DNA of 36,921 nt from a virus: IMG/VR virus record IMGVR_UViG_3300045988_076101; one strand, written 5' to 3'. The notes under the pieces were generated by a model. That model was not told the origin of the DNA and did no database searches. It was given only the letters and a program-made list of their open reading frames with translations. The position numbers and the translations under genes are program-made. The stretch's first letter is position 1, and each line of letters opens with the position of its first letter. Positions 3,191-9,925 of this stretch are shown one piece after another.

Positions 3191-3685
3191 ATGAACAAAG
3201 AACACATATCCGACTATAAAGCCCGGCTTGAAAAAGAGCTGTCCGAATTCATGAATCTGCCCGTCACCGAGGGCTCCGCCGAGGCGGTCAAGAGCATGAT
3301 CGAATGCCTGGACGCTGTCGAGCATCTGGAGCACTGCACCGGGATTGAGGACGACACCCACACCAGCGAGCGCCTGACCGACAGTGAACTTCGCGCATGG
3401 CTCCAGCGGATGGACAATGCCGACGGCTCGACCGGCCAGCACTGGACGGAGGATCAGACCGCCAGCATCGCCGCAGCGATCGGCGTGGCGTTCGACCATA
3501 TCACGGCCGAGGAGTTCTGCGCCGCGATGAATATGATGTATTCGGATTACTTCCCCGTCGGCGTCAAATACGGCATCGACCGGCCGGAGTTCTACGCCGA
3601 TCTTGCCAAGGCGTTCCTGTTCGACAAGGACGGTCCGGCACCTTCGGAGAAGCTCGCCGAGTACTATCACAAGGTCGTAAAATAG
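3191..3685 (+). CDS. Hypothetical protein (164 aa)
   Basis: ATG 3191 after gaaaggaaattaag. Conserved-looking motif MDNADGSTGQHWTEDQT...MNMMYSDY. Family name not recalled. Confidence 0.6.
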   Translation: MNKEHISDYKARLEKELSEFMNLPVTEGSAEAVKSMIECLDAVEHLEHCTGIEDDTHTSERLTDSELRAWLQRMDNADGSTGQHWTEDQTASIAAAIGVAFDHITAEEFCAAMNMMYSDYFPVGVKYGIDRPEFYADLAKAFLFDKDGPAPSEKLAEYYHKVVK

Positions 3686-3932: not shown

Positions 3933-5126
3933 TTAAGTATCTTGAAAAGTATCTTGAGAGCTGAAGGCAGCAAGCACAGATTTTGCGGTATCTTCCGGGC
4001 GATTTTGCATCAGATGTGCGTATATATTCAGCGTGATCGCCGCCGTAGCGTGACCGGCGAGATACTGCGCCGTCTTGACATCTGCGCCGGACAGGATCAG
4101 CTCGGAAATGTATGTATGACGCAGCAGGTGCCGCGTTACATGGAAGTCGAAGGCAACCTTGACATTCCTATACGGAACATCATCCCCGACCTTCAGATCT
4201 TTTGTGATCGTCTTTCCATTGTTCTTATTATCCTTGTAGGTCACGGTGTGAACTTCGCGCACGGCGACGGCCTCCCATTCGTGCCGAAAGGACATGCTTG
4301 TATGAGGCGATCCGTCCCGGCGGCAGCAGACATAGCCGCTGTCGCGCCTGACGCTGCGCAGATGCTCCGTCAGAACGGGCGGTATCGGGACATCACGCCG
4401 CGCTGATTTGCTCTTAAGAGTATCCGTCAGAACAGGCTGATTGTGCTCCCATCGTAGAGCACGGCGGACACGGATGTGAGGAGCCTTGCCGTCGAGGTCG
4501 ACGCAGTCCCATTGCAGCCCCAGCGCCTCCTCCCTACGGAGTCCGGCATACATACAGAGCATGACGAAAGTCAGTATACGCTCCCCTTGCAGCTCTTTAA
4601 TGAGCGCGGTCTGCTGTTCTTTCGTCAGCGCGACCTTTTCGGGTGGCTTGCTGCCGCCGGCTTTAAGCCCCCGACACGGAGAGCGGCTGATCAGCTCGTT
4701 TTCCTCGGCTGCTGCAAACATCATCTTGAGCGTCGTGACGATCTTCTGCTGGCTCGCTTTCGACAGGTTCGCCGCGGCCAGCATTACGGCGCGAATGTTA
4801 TCCGGCTTCACCTCATCGAGACGCTGCTGCCCGATGACCGGGCAGATATGATTATTTATCGCGTTTCTGTGGCTCTGCCGCCCGCTGGAGGACAGCCCGG
4901 CGGTGTTCAGCTCGTACCACTTCGCAGCGTACTCAAATACATACGGCGACTGCGGGTTTTCCATCTCGGCAAACTCCGCCTCTTTTTCGCGCAAGCGCTC
5001 ACGCAGCTCAGCTTTCGTCTTACCGTAAATCGCAAGCCACTTGCCAGTCTGCGGATTTCTTATTTGCTTTTTATAGAGTTGCTTTTCTTTAACCCACGTA
5101 AACTCCGGGCGATTGTTCTTCGGCAT
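3933..5126 (-). CDS. int: Tyrosine recombinase / phage integrase
   Basis: 397 aa. Catalytic-type motifs AGLRREEALGLQW, HLLRHTYISE and GHATAAITLNIYAHL. SD aggtga upstream. Adjacent to the tRNA-like core. Confidence 0.9.
   Translation of the reverse strand: MPKNNRPEFTWVKEKQLYKKQIRNPQTGKWLAIYGKTKAELRERLREKEAEFAEMENPQSPYVFEYAAKWYELNTAGLSSSGRQSHRNAINNHICPVIGQQRLDEVKPDNIRAVMLAAANLSKASQQKIVTTLKMMFAAAEENELISRSPCRGLKAGGSKPPEKVALTKEQQTALIKELQGERILTFVMLCMYAGLRREEALGLQWDCVDLDGKAPHIRVRRALRWEHNQPVLTDTLKSKSARRDVPIPPVLTEHLRSVRRDSGYVCCRRDGSPHTSMSFRHEWEAVAVREVHTVTYKDNKNNGKTITKDLKVGDDVPYRNVKVAFDFHVTRHLLRHTYISELILSGADVKTAQYLAGHATAAITLNIYAHLMQNRPEDTAKSVLAAFSSQDTFQDT
3936..3957 (+). repeat. attP arm on the integrase side: two AGTATCTTGA repeats (3936-3945, 3948-3957)
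   Basis: Identical decamers in the same orientation as the four at 3695-3744. They overlap the last integrase codons (..QDTFQDT*). Confidence 0.7.
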
Positions 5127-5178: not shown

Positions 5179-6051
5179 TTAATATCCTGCTTTTGCGACG
5201 CCGTACTCGGCTTGTTCTTGAGAGAACCCCTCATATTTGAGCTGGTCAATCAGCCCTGACTTCGAGAACGAGGAGTGTTTCAGATACGATTCCGCGCACT
5301 TTGCTGCCTGTTCGTACCAGTCAGCGCCGCAGTTGTCGGCAGCAAACAGAGCTTCGGCATGAGTATACCCCTCATATTCGAGCTGTCCGATCAGGCCGGT
5401 GTACGAGAAAGACGAAGACCGCAGGTATGACAGCGCGGACTTGAGCGCGTTTTCCTCCCCAACGGTCTCGGCTGCTCTTAGCTTAGCCGAGGATGTCAAG
5501 TCGCCGGACGATATTTCATCGAAATAAGTCAGAACATCGTAAGAGACTGCCCCGTCGTAGATCTCAATCAGCGTATGCAGTCCCGTGTTCCCGTTGCTGT
5601 TGCGGAACGCCACGAAATCATTGTCATTGACAACAAGAATGTTAATGACAGGGTCGGTGCAGCCGTCGGCGACGAACTTATCAGTCAGCTCTTTACTCTT
5701 AGCGCATAAGGAGTCCTTAAGCGCCGTCCAATCATCATCTTGGTTGTTGTGCTCGGCGGAGAGCTGAATCGCTTGTTGTGTTATCGTTGTGTCCGCAAGG
5801 TACACCGTGAATGAAACCCCGCGGCTATTAGAATCGGCCTGAACGACAACAGCATCAAAGTCCCCGTTAAATGCCGAAGCTATAGCAAGTTTATAATTTC
5901 TCAGATCGTCTTCCGGTGTCGGCTCGGGTGTTGCGAGCTCAGCGGTTGACATCACGGGCTGCACACTGGAGGCCGGCGTCTTTGACATGGTGCCCATCAG
6001 AACGCCAAGAACAGCAATCAGAATGAGCAGATACCTCCACTTCAACTTCAT
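5179..6051 (-). CDS. Membrane-anchored protein with two C-terminal Ltp-type (host cell surface-exposed lipoprotein) repeats; superinfection-exclusion candidate
   Basis: N-terminal signal/anchor LLILIAVLGVLMG with no lipobox Cys. The C-terminus NALKSALSYLRSSSFSYTGLIGQLEYEGYTHAEALFAADNCGADWYEQAAKCAESYLKHSSFSKSGLIDQLKYEGFSQEQAEYGV fits the Ltp repeat pattern twice. Confidence 0.75.
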   Translation of the reverse strand: MKLKWRYLLILIAVLGVLMGTMSKTPASSVQPVMSTAELATPEPTPEDDLRNYKLAIASAFNGDFDAVVVQADSNSRGVSFTVYLADTTITQQAIQLSAEHNNQDDDWTALKDSLCAKSKELTDKFVADGCTDPVINILVVNDNDFVAFRNSNGNTGLHTLIEIYDGAVSYDVLTYFDEISSGDLTSSAKLRAAETVGEENALKSALSYLRSSSFSYTGLIGQLEYEGYTHAEALFAADNCGADWYEQAAKCAESYLKHSSFSKSGLIDQLKYEGFSQEQAEYGVAKAGY

Positions 6052-6105: not shown

Positions 6106-6651
6106 TTATTTCCCCCGCCGCTCTTTGCGGCTTATTACAAAGAAATACACCGTCGCGGTGACGCCGGCCGTCAGCGCAACGATCACGACCGCTCCGACTA
6201 CGGACGGGGCGCCTCGCCACAGGCCGAAGTCGGGGTCTATGATATCAAGTCTCAAATACGGGACAAGCGCGATGATCGCCATCGCTGCGACGAAGGTCAG
6301 GCAGTAAATCAACCTGTCCTTTGCCCTCAGCGCCCGCCGGTGCTGCTGAAATGATCGTTCCAGCAGCTCATTTTCTCTCTTAACCGCCGCATTATCGTGC
6401 TCGAGCACCTCTATGCGGTGCTCGTTCTCCGGCGTCTTATCCGGGATTTCAATGCCGAAATACTCGTCCAGCGACACATTGCAGACCCGGCAGATCGGGC
6501 CGACCGTGTACACCGACGGGTCCTTTGACGCTCTCGCGAAGAATCCGTTAACCGTCGCTTCCGGTACTCCGGACAGCTCCGCGATGCGCCTGCTTGAGTT
6601 GTTCCCCTTATTTGCCCGACACAGATCTTTTAACAGCGGCTTTTCCGCCAT
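6106..6651 (-). CDS. Membrane-tethered XRE-type HTH protein (HTH + coiled coil + two C-terminal TM helices)
   Basis: N-terminal NNSSRRIAELSGVPEATVNGFF...CNVSLDEYFG is an XRE-like HTH. The C-terminal LIYCLTFVAAMAIIALVPYL and VVGAVVIVALTAGVTATVYFFVI are hydrophobic helices. Confidence 0.65.
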   Translation of the reverse strand: MAEKPLLKDLCRANKGNNSSRRIAELSGVPEATVNGFFARASKDPSVYTVGPICRVCNVSLDEYFGIEIPDKTPENEHRIEVLEHDNAAVKRENELLERSFQQHRRALRAKDRLIYCLTFVAAMAIIALVPYLRLDIIDPDFGLWRGAPSVVGAVVIVALTAGVTATVYFFVISRKERRGK

Positions 6652-6762: not shown

Positions 6763-6916
6763 TAAGCGCAGCAGAAAAACCATAACACCGGGTATCTGCT
6801 AAAGCTTCGGTCGAGGCGGCAACCAAGGCCGGAGCAATTCTACAATGAAAGGGGGGCGCAAAGCCGGCAGCCCTGCGGTGTTCCTGTGCGCCGCAAATTT
6901 ATTTTAGGAGGCAACC

Positions 6917-7069
6917 ATGGAGGACACCAGACGAAGAGACCAGATCAACCGAATTATCAGCAAGTATCAGCTCCTGCCGCCGGAAGACCGGGAGAGGGTG
7001 CTCACTCTCCTTGCGTTTTTAATAGCAGATCAACATAGTCCTCCATGCGCTGCAAGTTCTCATCGTTGA
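6917..7069 (+). CDS. Possible 50-aa ORF convergent with, and overlapping by 68 nt, the 3' end of the repressor gene
   Basis: Strong SD aggagg 6 nt upstream of ATG 6917. The peptide MEDTRRRDQINRIISKYQLLPPEDRERVLTLLAFL... is below the ORF-track cutoff. Coding status uncertain. Confidence 0.25.
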   Translation: MEDTRRRDQINRIISKYQLLPPEDRERVLTLLAFLIADQHSPPCAASSHR

Positions 7070-7304
7070 GCAGCTTCAGCTTGCGGTTAAGCCTGTCGTC
7101 CTTGACGACGGGCTTTTCTTTTTGCCCCAAAAGCTCATCTATTGAGCAATTAAAAATGTCGGCCATTCGTTTCAAGGATTCAAAATCAGGCTCACGGCGA
7201 CCGACTTCCCAGCCGCTCACAGTGCCCTGTTTGACTGACAGCATATCGGCAAGGTCTTTTTGCTTGAGCCTTGCTTCCTGCCTAAATTCCTTGATACGAT
7301 TCAT
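7002..7304 (-). CDS. XRE-family HTH repressor (CI-like, 100 aa, no peptidase domain)
   Basis: LKQKDLADMLSVKQGTVSGWEVGRREPDFESLKRMADIFNCSIDELLG is a canonical XRE HTH. Divergent from the strong promoter at 7390. Confidence 0.85.
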   Translation of the reverse strand: MNRIKEFRQEARLKQKDLADMLSVKQGTVSGWEVGRREPDFESLKRMADIFNCSIDELLGQKEKPVVKDDRLNRKLKLLNDENLQRMEDYVDLLLKTQGE

Positions 7305-7389
7305 AGTTTATCACCTGATATAACAATACGCGATATTCCCGGCGTTTTCAAGCTTTATAACAAATCGCTTATTTTTTTAATATTACCTC

Positions 7390-7418
7390 TTGACATATAG
7401 CGAAACGCTGTATATAAT
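7390..7418 (+). promoter_or_regulatory. Consensus early promoter (TTGACA-17 nt-TATAAT)
   Basis: TTGACA at 7390-7395 and TATAAT at 7413-7418, read directly. Divergent from the repressor gene. Confidence 0.75.
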
Positions 7419-7457
7419 CAGAATCGCAAACCGCTGTATAAAGCGCAACGCTATAAA
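7406..7457 (+). promoter_or_regulatory. Three CGCT(G)TATA-type repeats (7406-7414, 7432-7440, 7449-7457); candidate operators overlapping and following the -10 box
   Basis: CGCTGTATA occurs twice and CGCTATAAA once, read directly. Confidence 0.4.
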
Positions 7458-7485
7458 TTATAACGGAGGCGAGGGCAGGGAAATG
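7453..7485 (+). repeat. Plus-strand leader block copy 1 (ataaattataacggaggcgagggcagggaaATG)
   Basis: 33 nt with 3 mismatches to 8175-8207. Ends exactly at the start codon of 7483..7833. Confidence 0.85.
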
Positions 7486-7833
7486 AAGTGGACATTCGAC
7501 GACGGCCATGAAATTTACATAGAGGCTGTCAGGTGCGCCCCGGACGACACAAGCACACTGGTCTTTTGGCCGACTATGCAGCTCCGCGCCAGCGACCGGC
7601 AAAAACTTGAGACAGAGCTCTCGGAAAAGTTCGGCAGAAAAGTTGTTGTCATGCCGTCATACCTGACCAATCAGCCCGGTGCAACCGTAAGAAACTGCGA
7701 TTCGAGCTGCATGCGGGATCGAATACAGTCGCTTGACGAAAGGCTCAGCAGGAAGATTTTTGCCTGGAAGATTCTTTCCTTGTCCAATGCTATTGTGCTT
7801 ATCCTTCACAGCATCCGCATTATTTTAGGCTGA
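7483..7833 (+). CDS. Hypothetical 116-aa protein with a C-terminal TM helix (first early gene)
   Basis: SD ggagg in the duplicated leader. C-terminal AWKILSLSNAIVLILHSIRIILG. Family not recognised. Confidence 0.6.
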   Translation: MKWTFDDGHEIYIEAVRCAPDDTSTLVFWPTMQLRASDRQKLETELSEKFGRKVVVMPSYLTNQPGATVRNCDSSCMRDRIQSLDERLSRKIFAWKILSLSNAIVLILHSIRIILG

Positions 7834-8122
7834 AAAACGATAGAATCCCCACAAGACTGCCGACAACACCGATCGCAGTAAACACAGCATCGGCAACCTC
7901 TTTTCCCCTTTTCTTTTTCATCTGCACGTACTCCTCCAAGAAGCCGTCATCAATGGTGACCGTGCAGGAGTCGGAGATATCAGCGTCCGAGTAGCTGATT
8001 GTCAGCGGCGGGAAAGCATAGTTAAGCTTCAGATAGCTCTCAAGCTTCGCATGCCGGAGAATCTTGTCAAGCTGTTTATAACGAATGATCATCCCGCAAA
8101 GCTTGTATTGTTCTTTTGTCAT
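7820..8122 (-). CDS. Hypothetical 100-aa tail-anchored membrane protein
   Basis: ATG at 8122 with SD aaaggtgg inside the duplicated 38-nt block. C-terminal KKKRGKE + VADAVFTAIGVVGSLVGILSFF. The 3' end overlaps 7483..7833 by 14 nt. Confidence 0.6.
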   Translation of the reverse strand: MTKEQYKLCGMIIRYKQLDKILRHAKLESYLKLNYAFPPLTISYSDADISDSCTVTIDDGFLEEYVQMKKKRGKEVADAVFTAIGVVGSLVGILSFFSLK

Positions 8123-8156
8123 GGCAACAACCACCTTTCACGGCGATATTACCACA
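8119..8156 (-). repeat. Minus-strand promoter/leader block copy 1 (38 nt, identical to 8825-8862)
   Basis: The minus strand reads tgtggtaatatcgccgtgaaaggtggttgttgccATGa, giving an extended -10 (TGnTAATAT), an SD and the start codon. Confidence 0.9.
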
Positions 8157-8174
8157 TGGAATACATAAACACAA

Positions 8175-8207
8175 ATAAATCATAACGGAGGCGAGGGCAG
8201 AAAAATG
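8175..8207 (+). repeat. Plus-strand leader block copy 2 (ataaatcataacggaggcgagggcagaaaaATG)
   Basis: Matches 7453-7485 at 30 of 33 positions. Ends at the start codon of 8205..8459. Confidence 0.85.
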
Positions 8208-8459
8208 TACATACATGAAGCGATTAAGAAAGCGCAGGAGAGAAACGCCGCCGGGCAGTCATGGGGATTGCGCCGCGCAGACTGGGGCGAAGATTACCTG
8301 AGCTTTAGCAAATGGTACCCGCCCAACGGCGAACGCAAAATATATGAGTGTCTCATTTTAAATGATTCCTGCGTGAGTGCATGGTATCCCACAACTGAGG
8401 AGCTTACAGCGGATGACTGGAGATTGGCACCTCTCGGCGGGCCGAAAATCCGGCGCTGA
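8205..8459 (+). CDS. DUF2829 / Tad2-like small protein (candidate anti-Thoeris nucleotide sponge)
   Basis: 84 aa. N-terminal IHEAIKKAQE...RRADWGEDYL and C-terminal SAWYPTTEELTADDWRL fit the DUF2829 pattern (..W.P...DLLA.DW..) by eye. Confidence 0.5.
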   Translation: MYIHEAIKKAQERNAAGQSWGLRRADWGEDYLSFSKWYPPNGERKIYECLILNDSCVSAWYPTTEELTADDWRLAPLGGPKIRR

Positions 8460-8828
8460 TCAAAGAATCCCCACCACGCGGAGGACTATATCGGCAACGG
8501 AAGCAAGGAGCGCCGCGATCGCAATCGCCAGCGTGGCAGATGCCCGCTTGTCATCACGGCGGCTGCTGTCCACCTGCTCCATTTCGGCGCGTCCGACATC
8601 CGCAAGCCGAAGAGCTTCGGCTGTGTGTTTATACTCGTTCGCCGCCCCGATCGGCATTATACAGCCGGAATCCCATAAATCGGCAATGAGCCGCGACCCG
8701 GCATCAAGCTTTGACGCCTGCTCCGCGACGTCCTTATACGCTGCGGTCTGCCGGAAACAATCGTCCTTTATGATGTACTGCTGAGTCTCAATGTATTTAA
8801 GCAGTTCATACGCAGATTCACTTATCAT
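8460..8828 (-). CDS. Hypothetical 122-aa tail-anchored membrane protein
   Basis: ATG at 8828 inside the second copy of the 38-nt block. C-terminal RRDDKR + ASATLAIAIAALLASVADIVLRVVGIL. Abuts 8205..8459 tail to tail. Confidence 0.6.
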   Translation of the reverse strand: MISESAYELLKYIETQQYIIKDDCFRQTAAYKDVAEQASKLDAGSRLIADLWDSGCIMPIGAANEYKHTAEALRLADVGRAEMEQVDSSRRDDKRASATLAIAIAALLASVADIVLRVVGIL

Positions 8829-8862
8829 GGCAACAACCACCTTTCACGGCGATATTACCACA
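8825..8862 (-). repeat. Minus-strand promoter/leader block copy 2 (38 nt, identical to 8119-8156)
   Basis: Direct comparison of the two stretches. Confidence 0.9.
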
Positions 8863-8875
8863 AGGAGGCAGGGAA

Positions 8876-9073
8876 ATGAAAGTATTCGTCAGTATCTTCT
8901 TCGGAGCGGCGGTGATCCTCACGGCTTACTCAAATGTAGGCGCATGGCAGAGCGCGATTGTGCTCTGGAAGTACGGCAGCCGCTGGCCGGTCGCGGGCGT
9001 AGCCCTGCTGACGCTCCTGACGCTGTTCGCCTGGGCTGTGGGCTGCTACCTCATCAAGCATTACATATTTTAG
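8876..9073 (+). CDS. Hypothetical 65-aa protein with two TM helices
   Basis: The leader ggcagggaaatgaa repeats the end of the 7453 block. Hydrophobic helices VFVSIFFGAAVILTAY and VAGVALLTLLTLFAWAVGCYLI. Confidence 0.5.
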   Translation: MKVFVSIFFGAAVILTAYSNVGAWQSAIVLWKYGSRWPVAGVALLTLLTLFAWAVGCYLIKHYIF

Positions 9074-9228
9074 TTTTCTCCTTTTCTATCCTCTCTATAC
9101 CTTTCCCCTTGCATCTCCCCGCGGTCTTTGCTCTTCTTTTCCCACGGGGAGGCCTTAATGCAGCCGACGCCGGTCGCAAGCCCGGGAGCAAAATGCAGAG
9201 CGAGGCAGACAGAAAGCAGGTGACGATA

Positions 9229-9480
9229 ATGGACGAGCTCAAAAGGCTGCGCGAGGCCGCGGGACTATCCCAAGTCCAGCTTGCATTGAGACTGGGCGTG
9301 TCGCAGGGCACTATAGCACACTGGGAAATCGGCAGACGCGCTCCGCAGGCCAGGCACCTTATAAAGCTGGCGAACATCCTCGGATGCAGCGTTGACGCGC
9401 TGCTCGGACTGAACACCCAGAGCGCGGACGCAGCCCGTGACAATACAATACCTGACAGGGAGGTGCGCGTCAATGGATAA
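9229..9480 (+). CDS. XRE-family HTH protein (Cro/antirepressor-like; start 9229, alternative start 9193)
   Basis: LKRLREAAGLSQVQLALRLGVSQGTIAHWEIGRRAPQARHLIKLANILGCSVDALLG. Confidence 0.8.
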   Translation: MDELKRLREAAGLSQVQLALRLGVSQGTIAHWEIGRRAPQARHLIKLANILGCSVDALLGLNTQSADAARDNTIPDREVRVNG

Positions 9481-9925
9481 GGACGCCCGGAACATCTACA
9501 GAAACGCGCGGCAGACTGCCGGTCTGACGCAGGAGCGCTGGGCGGAGCTGCTGGGGATATCCCCGGACAGCGTCCGACGGTACGAGGCCGGGGCGATGCT
9601 CCCCAGCGACGAGACGGTGCTGATGATGGCGGAGACGACGGGAATCCTCGTTCTGCCGCTATGGCACCTCAGGGCTAAGAGCACGATAGCCGAGGACATG
9701 CTCCCGGATGTGCCGGACGTGCCGCTGCCTCAGGCGGTGCTGAAGCTGCTGACATCGGTCAAGGCCGTGAGCGGCAGCATCGACAACCTGATACAGATCG
9801 CGTCTGACGGCATGGTCGACAACCGCGAGGAGGCGCTCTTTGAGGAGATCGCAGGCGACCTCGACGACGTTATACAGGCGGCGATCGCCGTCAAGTGCGC
9901 GGGAGGTGCGAGGCATGCAGAGTGA
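9473..9925 (+). CDS. XRE-type HTH protein with a C-terminal domain of unknown function
   Basis: ATG 9473 overlaps the upstream stop (ATGGATAA). IYRNARQTAGLTQERWAELLGISPDSVRRYEAG is an HTH. Confidence 0.7.
   Translation: MDKDARNIYRNARQTAGLTQERWAELLGISPDSVRRYEAGAMLPSDETVLMMAETTGILVLPLWHLRAKSTIAEDMLPDVPDVPLPQAVLKLLTSVKAVSGSIDNLIQIASDGMVDNREEALFEEIAGDLDDVIQAAIAVKCAGGARHAE

Follow-up and report, generated by a model that had tools for sequence, protein, structure and literature searches.

The 36,921-nucleotide virus record IMGVR_UViG_3300045988_076101, analysed here at its full length as the window, is a complete, circularly permuted genome of a temperate phage. Between its immunity switch (repressor gene, operators and early promoter) and its first conserved early gene lies an array of small genes at 7453-8880, in which plus-strand early genes converge on inverted membrane-protein genes and two short regulatory blocks, here called leader A and block B, are repeated. 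The open reading frames (ORFs) and repeated features of the array and its downstream border are as follows.

7483-7833, plus strand: ORF1 (alpha-plus), 116 amino acids (aa), predicted C-terminal transmembrane (TM) segment, no family match
7820-8122, minus strand: ORF2 (alpha-minus), 100 aa from the ATG at 8122, predicted tail-anchored protein
8205-8459, plus strand: ORF3 (beta-plus), 84 aa, Tad2-like (DUF2829), without a TM segment
8460-8828, minus strand: ORF4 (beta-minus), 122 aa, predicted tail-anchored protein with a possible winged-helix N-terminal domain
8876-9073, plus strand: ORF5, 65 aa, two predicted TM segments, the conserved first 'core' early gene behind the cassettes
7453-7485, plus strand: leader A copy 1, ribosome-binding region and ATG of ORF1, located by repeat and pattern search
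8175-8207, plus strand: leader A copy 2, identical to copy 1 at 30 of 33 positions
8863-8878, plus strand: short leader form AGGAGGCAGGGAAATG of ORF5, which includes the third, partial copy of A
8867-8880, plus strand: third, short copy of A, GGCAGGGAAATGAA, preceding ORF5
8119-8156, minus strand: block B copy 1, an exact duplicate with predicted extended -10 TGTGGTAATAT, Shine-Dalgarno (SD) sequence AAAGGTGG and the ATG of ORF2
8825-8862, minus strand: block B copy 2, identical to copy 1, heading ORF4
8157-8174: AT-rich 18-nt spacer between B copy 1 and A copy 2; on the minus strand, the region upstream of the -10 of B copy 1

The two gene pairs are arranged tail to tail: the 3' ends of ORF1 and ORF2 overlap by 14 nt (7820-7833), and ORF3 and ORF4 abut exactly at 8459/8460. 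Hydropathy analysis places a C-terminal TM segment in ORF1, ORF2 and ORF4, two segments in ORF5 and none in ORF3. These coordinates, the overlap, the abutment and the TM predictions had been given in a preliminary description of this DNA made from its letters alone, and were borne out by the ORF listing and the hydropathy profiles. It had also reported an exactly duplicated 38-nt block, which repeat and pattern searches recovered as the core, block B, of a 50-nt direct repeat (8111-8160 and 8817-8866), and a 33-nt leader occurring in two copies with 30 identical positions and in a third partial copy before ORF5, which was found as described. The distance from B copy 1 to A copy 2, given there as 14 nt, is 18 nt. 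The term 'tail-anchored', which had been applied to the minus-strand proteins, holds for ORF2 and ORF4 but not for the minus protein of the epsilon cassette found in a related phage, whose TM segment is N-terminal. The window contains two exact copies of block B (chance expectation 0.00 in 100 shuffles) and two of the 19-nt core of leader A (chance expectation 0.01), and the cargo DNA between the identical blocks is unalignable. A full cassette has the order leader A, plus-strand early gene or genes, convergent minus-strand membrane-protein gene, block B.

About 45 related loci were collected by scanning IMG/VR, metagenomes and genomes with the exact block cores and by protein look-ups. The exact-pattern scans with the cores of B and A contributed 15 IMG/VR loci, 11 metagenome loci and one genome locus (L028, a metagenome-assembled genome labelled Clostridiales bacterium); the samples behind the related loci are mostly human-gut metagenomes. 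A blastn search of 6900-9500 against 50,697 GenBank phage records gave no match. Four other genome matches to the 19-nt leader core were discarded as chance occurrences inside unrelated coding sequence, two of them sharing a CYNGGEGR peptide context. On either side of the array, identity between the related phages and the window is 86-98%; between leader A and ORF5 the differences are of whole units. Some 16 architectures occur among the approximately 45 loci, with zero to two or three cassettes and at least six kinds of pair, labelled here with Greek letters.

No cassette, A directly on ORF5: L011, L012, L015, L028
Alpha only: L004, L016, L017, L026
Alpha and beta: the window, L025
Beta only: L024, L037, L039-41
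Beta and gamma: L001, L007, L009, L018, L032, L038
Gamma only: L003, L021
Delta and epsilon: L006
Beta and epsilon: L036
Delta and a lone Tad2-like gene: L010, L022
Zeta: L023, L056
Beta plus delta-plus/zeta: L057, L058
Plus-only cassettes: L014, L034, L033/35, L052

The blocks thus flank different cargo in relatives, which the preliminary description had proposed as a test of its cassette idea. The convergent pairs that it had taken for cassettes do recur as full units, but plus-only cassettes exist as well. All breakpoints relative to the window, as determined by BLAST, lie inside A or B (7485/7487, 8160, 8174/8178, 8822/8826, 8861 and 8867): L004 joins 8160 to 8822, the zero-cassette loci L011, L012, L015 and L028 join 7487 to 8867, and L001, L007 and L009 join 7485 to 8174. 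Homologous (unequal) recombination between the repeated copies would be expected to leave such a pattern. Block B is found in front of five types of minus gene, which belong to three families unrelated in sequence (alpha/delta, beta/zeta and gamma), and its 33-nt core is invariant across about 40 copies, except for one site in two copies. The spacer between B copy 1 and A copy 2 recurs at internal B-A junctions of relatives, the short ORF5 leader follows the last cassette in all of them, and ORF5 is present in nearly all relatives, including those with no cassette. The same leader A is found after at least six different operator-region sequences, that is, in heteroimmune phages; A also marks a mosaic boundary of the immunity module. 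We are highly confident, from comparison of the sequences, that 7453-8880 is a two-cassette allele of a hypervariable array whose cassettes are exchanged by recombination.

An integron array was considered and rejected, as there is no integron integrase and the junctions are direct repeats without attC-like imperfect inverted repeats. Losses that left plus-only cassettes are found several times (L010/22/53, L052, L014, L034 and L033/35), with deletion scars visible in L010, L033 and L056, and no minus gene without a convergent plus partner was found among the related loci. In L056, a chimeric ORF at about 3505-3660 (minus strand of the locus) joins the first 13 Tad2-like codons to the C-terminal TM tail of delta-plus, a scar that illegitimate recombination has left inside the array.

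Several lines of evidence concern the coding status of the minus-strand ORFs, whose conservation as coding sequence the preliminary description had made a test of its proposal and which we can confirm. The pairwise ratio of nonsynonymous to synonymous substitution rates (dN/dS) is 0.2-0.45 for ORF2, ORF4 and the gamma minus gene, and is lowest in the annotated frame of the six; by ORF, the values are 0.22-0.38 for ORF1 (lowest in the sense frame), 0.26-0.44 for ORF2 and about 0.2 for ORF5. For ORF4 the ratio ties with one nearly open antisense frame that shares wobble positions, so that dN/dS alone cannot separate the two frames; the question was settled by the zeta homologue of ORF4 in L023 (24% identical, E 1e-6), which is open only in the minus-strand frame. 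Homologues of ORF4 at 24-41% identity keep the frame open, independent gene callers predict the minus ORFs in all assemblies, and these ORFs begin at a conserved SD beside a Gram-positive-type extended -10 (TGTG-G-TAATAT). Substitution ratios, open frames and gene calls together show that the minus-strand ORFs are real genes; they share their orientation with the repressor and integrase genes. The opposite possibility, that there is no system at all and that the pattern is due to tandem duplication at this site, faulty assembly or spurious ORFs in antisense orientation, could draw on the nearly open antisense frame of ORF4 with its similar dN/dS and on the tiny size of the families. It is nevertheless very improbable, given that dozens of independent assemblies, made in different studies, contain these same blocks and genes, that the cargo between identical blocks is unalignable and that the L023 homologue is open in the minus frame only. 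A simple tandem duplication in particular is ruled out by the relatives with different cassette arrays and by the unalignable cargo. A type I toxin-antitoxin system, with a toxin of less than about 60 aa and a non-coding antisense RNA, was likewise rejected, because the minus proteins have 100-136 aa and the opposing genes are conserved and under purifying selection.

Block B reads on the minus strand as TGTG-G-TAATAT, 13 nt, AAAGGTGG, 8 nt and ATG. The TGTG-n motif before a -10 hexamer is the Gram-positive '-16' form of the extended -10 promoter. We therefore propose that block B supplies a predicted extended -10 promoter, an SD and the start codon to the inverted gene, while leader A would supply the ribosome-binding site to the plus gene. 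Of block B, the epsilon cassette retains just TGTGGTAATAT, joined to an unrelated 5' untranslated region (5'UTR), which argues that B is a promoter rather than an RNA element alone. In minus-strand RNA, block B is predicted to fold into a hairpin that pairs the -10 region with the SD and AUG (B copy 1, -17.1 kcal/mol, z -3.35; B copy 2, -18.1 kcal/mol, z -4.55). The hairpin rests on G-U pairs and is hence absent from plus-strand RNA (z +0.87). The predicted 5'UTRs of transcripts initiated at B are unstructured; since such a transcript lacks the 5' arm, the hairpin would form only in read-through RNA, where it would block translation of the inverted gene, so that only mRNA initiated at B would be translated. 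Analogous folds in the blocks of the epsilon cassette and of the second phage lineage described below (lineage II) are not significant on their own, and covariation in the lineage II block was discarded as support, as the variants are few and not compensatory and z is only -1.9.

No terminator-like site was found in A or B, the B hairpin being without a U-tract, and no convincing terminator was found for the minus genes, for which only a weak terminator-like hairpin at the end of ORF4 (minus strand, 8483-8469) was noted. Rfam detected no known RNA family inside the array. The 3' ends of the minus genes share the sequence AGAATCCCCAC (8464-8474 and 7842-7852), which encodes ...VGIL. Because the 3' ends of the paired genes overlap or abut (0-67 nt) and leave no room for a terminator, the convergent transcripts must overlap.

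This unavoidable overlap raises the possibility that the cassettes are mainly regulatory, with the B promoters serving, through antisense RNA and transcriptional interference, to curb leaky expression of the early genes and the proteins being secondary; transcripts from B might even read into the repressor gene in the manner of lambda PRE and stabilise lysogeny. The B promoters face both the early promoter and the repressor gene, and the search for terminator-like sites found none on the minus strand from 7820 to 7305. Interference between face-to-face promoters occurs in coliphage 186, and in lambda the PRE transcript is antisense to cro. We nonetheless regard this explanation as improbable: the minus ORFs are under purifying selection, with SD, start codon and TM segment kept across homologues of 24-41% identity; phages with no cassette or with plus-only cassettes are common in the lineage, which indicates that the switch needs no B promoters; and at least three sequence-unrelated protein families occupy the same slot.

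Among the cargo proteins, only the Tad2-like proteins and one zinc ribbon gave more than sub-threshold matches to Pfam or PHROG. The assignment of ORF3 as DUF2829/Tad2-like, made in the preliminary description, is upheld by a match to the Pfam family PF11195 narrowly above the cut-off (26.1 bits against 25, E 1.2e-5, model positions 1-72 of 73) and is accompanied by a match to phrog_643. The C-terminus of ORF3 aligns weakly with the PDB Tad2 chains 9eib and 8v3e (E 1.6), and the conserved C-terminal motif W-P...L-x-A-x-D-W of the Tad2-like proteins aligns with the solved Tad2 chains. Gamma-plus (13.6 bits) and the L014 version (21.1 bits) score below the PF11195 cut-off, and the lineage II partner reaches 42.1 bits. 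ORF3 is short and soluble like Tad2; a C-terminal TM anchor sets apart the versions of gamma-plus, L014, L034 and lineage II. Across ORF3 and the Tad2-like proteins of L010, L019, L023 and L024, a hypervariable central segment at about residues 34-63 exists in at least three versions between almost invariant flanks; this mosaic pattern suggests recombination or diversifying selection.

The minus proteins, 100-136 aa long, have an N-terminal soluble domain of about 75-95 aa. Relatives of ORF2 were found only at 82% identity or above in a search of 5.8e9 proteins, and ORF4 had one distant relative, P0011 (41% identical), among 1.84 billion cluster representatives; a profile search gave 12 clusters in four subtypes. 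The alpha-minus and delta-minus proteins are homologous (34% identity, E 1e-9), and no similarity was found between alpha-plus and delta-plus. Comparison of the alpha/delta, beta/zeta and gamma groups of minus proteins by hhalign gave probabilities of 1-2%, and we therefore claim no single superfamily for them.

P0011 and its relatives belong to a different temperate lineage with a serine recombinase, a 130-aa XRE repressor, PcfJ, VRR_NUC and HicA or ToxN. In an early operon that otherwise runs in one direction, their homologue of ORF4 (117 aa, 39-41% identical) lies inverted; between none and two genes separate it from the divergent repressor, and it overlaps by 4 nt the convergent gene of a TM-anchored Tad2-like protein (PF11195, 42 bits). 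L042 has a further inverted homologue, zeta-like and of 106 aa, whose convergent partner is a 61-aa protein with two TM segments that is homologous to the 62-aa zeta partner of the first lineage (E 6e-5). The beta-type/Tad2-like and zeta-type/two-TM pairings are thus preserved at 24-41% identity in two lineages. The inverted genes of lineage II are headed by a duplicated block of other sequence and the same design (TTGCCT-17 (with TG)-TATAAT, SD and start codon), which scored 10/12 with TG in the promoter scan. The design of a portable predicted promoter plus inverted gene evidently recurs independently. The locus search with the Tad2-like alignment used an N-terminal pattern only and returned mostly the same lineage, and is no measure of pairing across DUF2829. 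In the lysogeny module of L048 and L062, both of lineage II, a ToxN_toxin-family gene (L048 5464-5949; L062 4933-5418), preceded directly in L048 by three 36-nt tandem repeats (5312-5419), looks like part of a ToxIN-type (type III) toxin-antitoxin or abortive-infection locus.

Being repeated in the array and shared among phages, A and B serve as homology patches at which cassettes are added, removed or exchanged, presumably by homologous recombination, and they are at the same time portable, predicted expression signals. The observations can be combined into a model of how the array might work. In the lysogen, B would drive transcription of the inverted genes, which runs the same way as that of the repressor gene, and the plus genes would be silent. 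Upon induction, the strong early promoter would read head-on through the inverted genes, shutting them off by collision and antisense RNA, and would also yield the plus-strand partner. Each pair would then be a cognate module, most likely of a prophage-expressed membrane effector, acting in exclusion or abortive infection, and an early-lytic antagonist of Tad2 fold or with small TM architecture, giving self-immunity during the phage's own lytic growth. The asymmetric loss, the orientation and the cognate pairing fit an effector whose presence makes the early-lytic partner necessary.

Several results weigh against this interpretation. None of the 10 proteins that were compared with PADLOC matched a defence family, and the Pfam and PHROG matches of the four non-Tad2 proteins in the window were all sub-threshold and uninformative. 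AlphaFold2 (AF2), run with shallow alignments, gave predicted local distance difference test (pLDDT) scores of 49 for ORF4 and 50 for ORF2, so that the models were not used, and Foldseek with the ORF4 model returned nothing significant (best E 3.4). The -10 of block B (TAATAT) matches only 4/6 consensus positions, and a simple promoter scan did not call B. Most loci were retrieved through the blocks themselves, which inflates the apparent conservation of the blocks; the loci reached through proteins carry identical blocks. The asymmetry between plus-only and minus-only loss comprises only about 4-6 independent events. Variation in the hypervariable patch of the Tad2-like protein is not visibly matched by changes in ORF4, which would fit an independent anti-host role of the Tad2-like protein; homologous minus proteins (alpha/delta and beta/zeta) have non-homologous plus partners; and the two genes of a pair could be linked for no other reason than that no recombination site lies between them.

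The last three points favour an alternative in which the genes are independent accessory genes of two temporal classes, linked merely through the lack of recombination sites other than A and B: the minus genes would be lysogen-expressed morons or superinfection-exclusion genes, and the plus genes early-lytic Tad2-type sponges or membrane proteins like Imm and Sp of T4. The plus-only cassettes, which apparently stand alone, agree with this, as do the lysogeny module's other variable slot with an Ltp-type exclusion gene and the established status of Tad2 family proteins as stand-alone sponges (10.1101/2023.05.01.538930). On the other hand, specific pairings persist at 24-41% identity in a second lineage with other junction blocks and other neighbours, illegitimate deletions have removed minus genes several times and have never been seen to remove a plus gene alone, and the 3' ends are packed to overlap in every pair. 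We consider this alternative rather unlikely, though a serious contender.

A further alternative assigns an anti-defence role to the plus genes, as Tad2-type sponges, and makes the inverted genes membrane-tethered, Aca-like winged-helix regulators. The beta/zeta family indeed shows winged-helix signals, all of them below significance: the best match to PadR has E 8e-4 (two of 13 members, below the cut-off), HTH_34 and HTH_45 are likewise sub-threshold, and the winged helix-turn-helix (HTH) profiles of the PDB entries 2f2e and 2esh match at E 0.1-1.2. MarR-family proteins are among the non-significant Foldseek matches, and the AF2 model of ORF4 (pLDDT 49) has an H-E-H-H-E secondary-structure pattern. 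The alpha/delta and epsilon minus proteins are without such a signal, the known Aca genes are, to our knowledge, co-directional and soluble, and a shared, invariant block B cannot be the specific operator of several unrelated regulators. Such a role is therefore doubtful at best.

Weighing these points, we hold the proposed role of the pairs in defence and self-immunity tentatively and at somewhat less than an even chance. The combined reading, a recombining cassette array with defence/self-immunity pairs, seems to us about evenly balanced between right and wrong. It is a possible but still unlikely extension that the full cassette is an undescribed two-component module for competition between phages, in which a membrane effector of the lysogen, excluding or aborting other phages and sensing through a small cytoplasmic domain that might be a winged helix, meets a convergent, first-early cognate antagonist; some antagonists would be a Tad2-fold sponge repurposed to self-immunity, and the promoter-in-hairpin junction would be portable, plug-and-play between heteroimmune phages, with translation only from own-promoter transcripts.

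The surroundings of the array are those of a lysogeny module and an early operon, with the following features.

3933-5126, minus strand: integrase of the phage tyrosine type, lysogeny module, sole recombinase
5179-6051, minus strand: Ltp-type exclusion lipoprotein, lysogeny module, identified by Pfam and PHROG scans
6106-6651, minus strand: HTH protein with TM segments, 181 aa, lysogeny module
7002-7304, minus strand: XRE/cI-type repressor gene, Pfam HTH_3 (E 2e-16) and PHROG transcriptional regulator/repressor families
7390-7418, plus strand: predicted early (PR-like) promoter TTGACA-17-TATAAT, 12/12 consensus positions in the promoter scan, divergent from the repressor gene
7397-7457: three operator-like 18-nt repeats found by repeat search, overlapping the early promoter, the third abutting leader A

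The divergent repressor, the perfect early promoter and the operators show that the early lytic operon opens with the array. Past ORF5, a gap of 155 nt precedes two XRE-type HTH genes, behind which the replication genes lie; endolysin and holin genes lie at 27-1191 of the window. From comparison with its relatives, the array-bearing phage is a temperate phage of about 37 kb of human-gut Clostridia. A second variable slot lies between the integrase gene and the gene of the 181-aa HTH-TM protein (5179-6051, minus strand); it holds the Ltp-type exclusion lipoprotein in the window and TM2/SHOCT proteins, unknown proteins of 215-308 aa or a HicB-like gene in L032-L041 and L056-L058. The conserved 181-aa protein itself (6106-6651, minus strand) has a weak N-terminal XRE HTH match (18 bits) and two C-terminal hydrophobic segments and resembles a membrane-anchored HTH protein, reminiscent of the inverted cassette proteins. 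At 9152-9206 (plus strand), between ORF5 and the first HTH gene and thus in the early transcript just 3' of the array, we noted a candidate type-P1 twister self-cleaving ribozyme (RF03160). With 45.9 bits it falls short of the gathering score of 67.2 (E 2e-8 to 2e-9), but the match spans the entire model; it has P1, P2 and the conserved core, and only 1 nt is left of the optional stem. The candidate is nearly invariant in the related phages; its 3' half is deleted in L028, and it is absent from the second phage lineage.

The array appears to be a new hotspot of genes for competition among phages, and the convergent pair has potential as a new class of two-gene module. If the proposed reading is true, an inverted gene that has its own promoter within an early operon, faces a specific convergent early gene and lies between repeated regulatory blocks would be a compact genomic signature for finding phage-versus-phage defence/self-immunity pairs in phages of gut Clostridia. 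As the pairs are small (58-136 aa) and available in several cognate versions, the hypothesis is directly testable by co-expression. Tad2-fold proteins would appear in a new context, anchored in the membrane and with an obligate partner, which bears on the use and regulation of immune-signal sponges.

Regarding known systems, prophage morons of the Hendrix type and the superinfection-exclusion genes Sie2009, Ltp and HK97 gp15 form one set for comparison. Like morons and exclusion genes such as P22 SieA (PMC10883804), the inverted genes encode small, fast-evolving ORFan membrane proteins under their own, here predicted, promoter, are present or absent between otherwise collinear phages, and lie in lysogeny-gene orientation beside the immunity region. 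Unlike morons, they are antisense within an early lytic operon, always converged upon by a specific early gene, without a recognisable terminator and with one portable promoter block in common. The defence and anti-defence hotspots of P2 and P4 and the arrays of integrons combine a fixed slot with interchangeable cargo. The array shares with them a slot bounded by conserved sequence and cargo that varies between close relatives, but its boundaries are 33-38-nt regulatory blocks repeated inside the array instead of flanking core genes as in P2/P4 hotspots, and, unlike in integrons, there is no integrase/attC and exchange presumably proceeds by general homologous recombination.

The same logic as proposed here, a prophage-expressed factor harmful to lytic phage growth and a linked element that counters it when the prophage itself enters the lytic cycle, is known from BstA/aba (PMC8585504) and TerI with anti-TerI1/2 (10.1101/2025.02.27.640495), which offer an analogy without sequence or domain similarity to the cassette genes. 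The aba element is a DNA element inside bstA (PMC8585504), and the TERi genes, unlike the cassettes, are not convergent membrane-protein pairs (10.1101/2025.02.27.640495). Tad2 proteins are DUF2829 sponges of about 89 aa for Thoeris signals (10.1101/2023.05.01.538930), with homologues reported to bind other signals (10.1101/2025.08.24.671296). ORF3 and several plus cargo proteins likewise match PF11195 and are short phage early proteins. They differ in that many cargo versions carry a C-terminal TM anchor and that full cassettes pair the Tad2-like gene with a convergent membrane-protein gene, an arrangement of which no description was found in the literature searched, including a term search of Tad2 papers.

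The closest described architecture is that of the promoter-early stem-loop (PeSL) cassettes of T4-type phages (PMC2839356, PMC4122927). As in PeSL cassettes, short, conserved and repeated motifs containing a promoter, which for B is a predicted one, flank ORFan genes in hyperplastic regions, and the endpoints of insertions, deletions and replacements between close relatives fall in the motifs, which would be expression signal and recombination site at once. If so, the array extends the idea of regulatory motifs as recombination sites from virulent T4-like to temperate phages. PeSLs consist of a sigma-70 early promoter and a terminator stem-loop, are co-directional with their cargo and occur in virulent myoviruses (PMC2839356, PMC4122927), whereas the junction in the array is bipartite, a plus-strand leader with ribosome-binding site and an inverted predicted promoter with its own, without a terminator; its cargo is a convergent gene pair, and its bearers are temperate phages of gut Clostridia.

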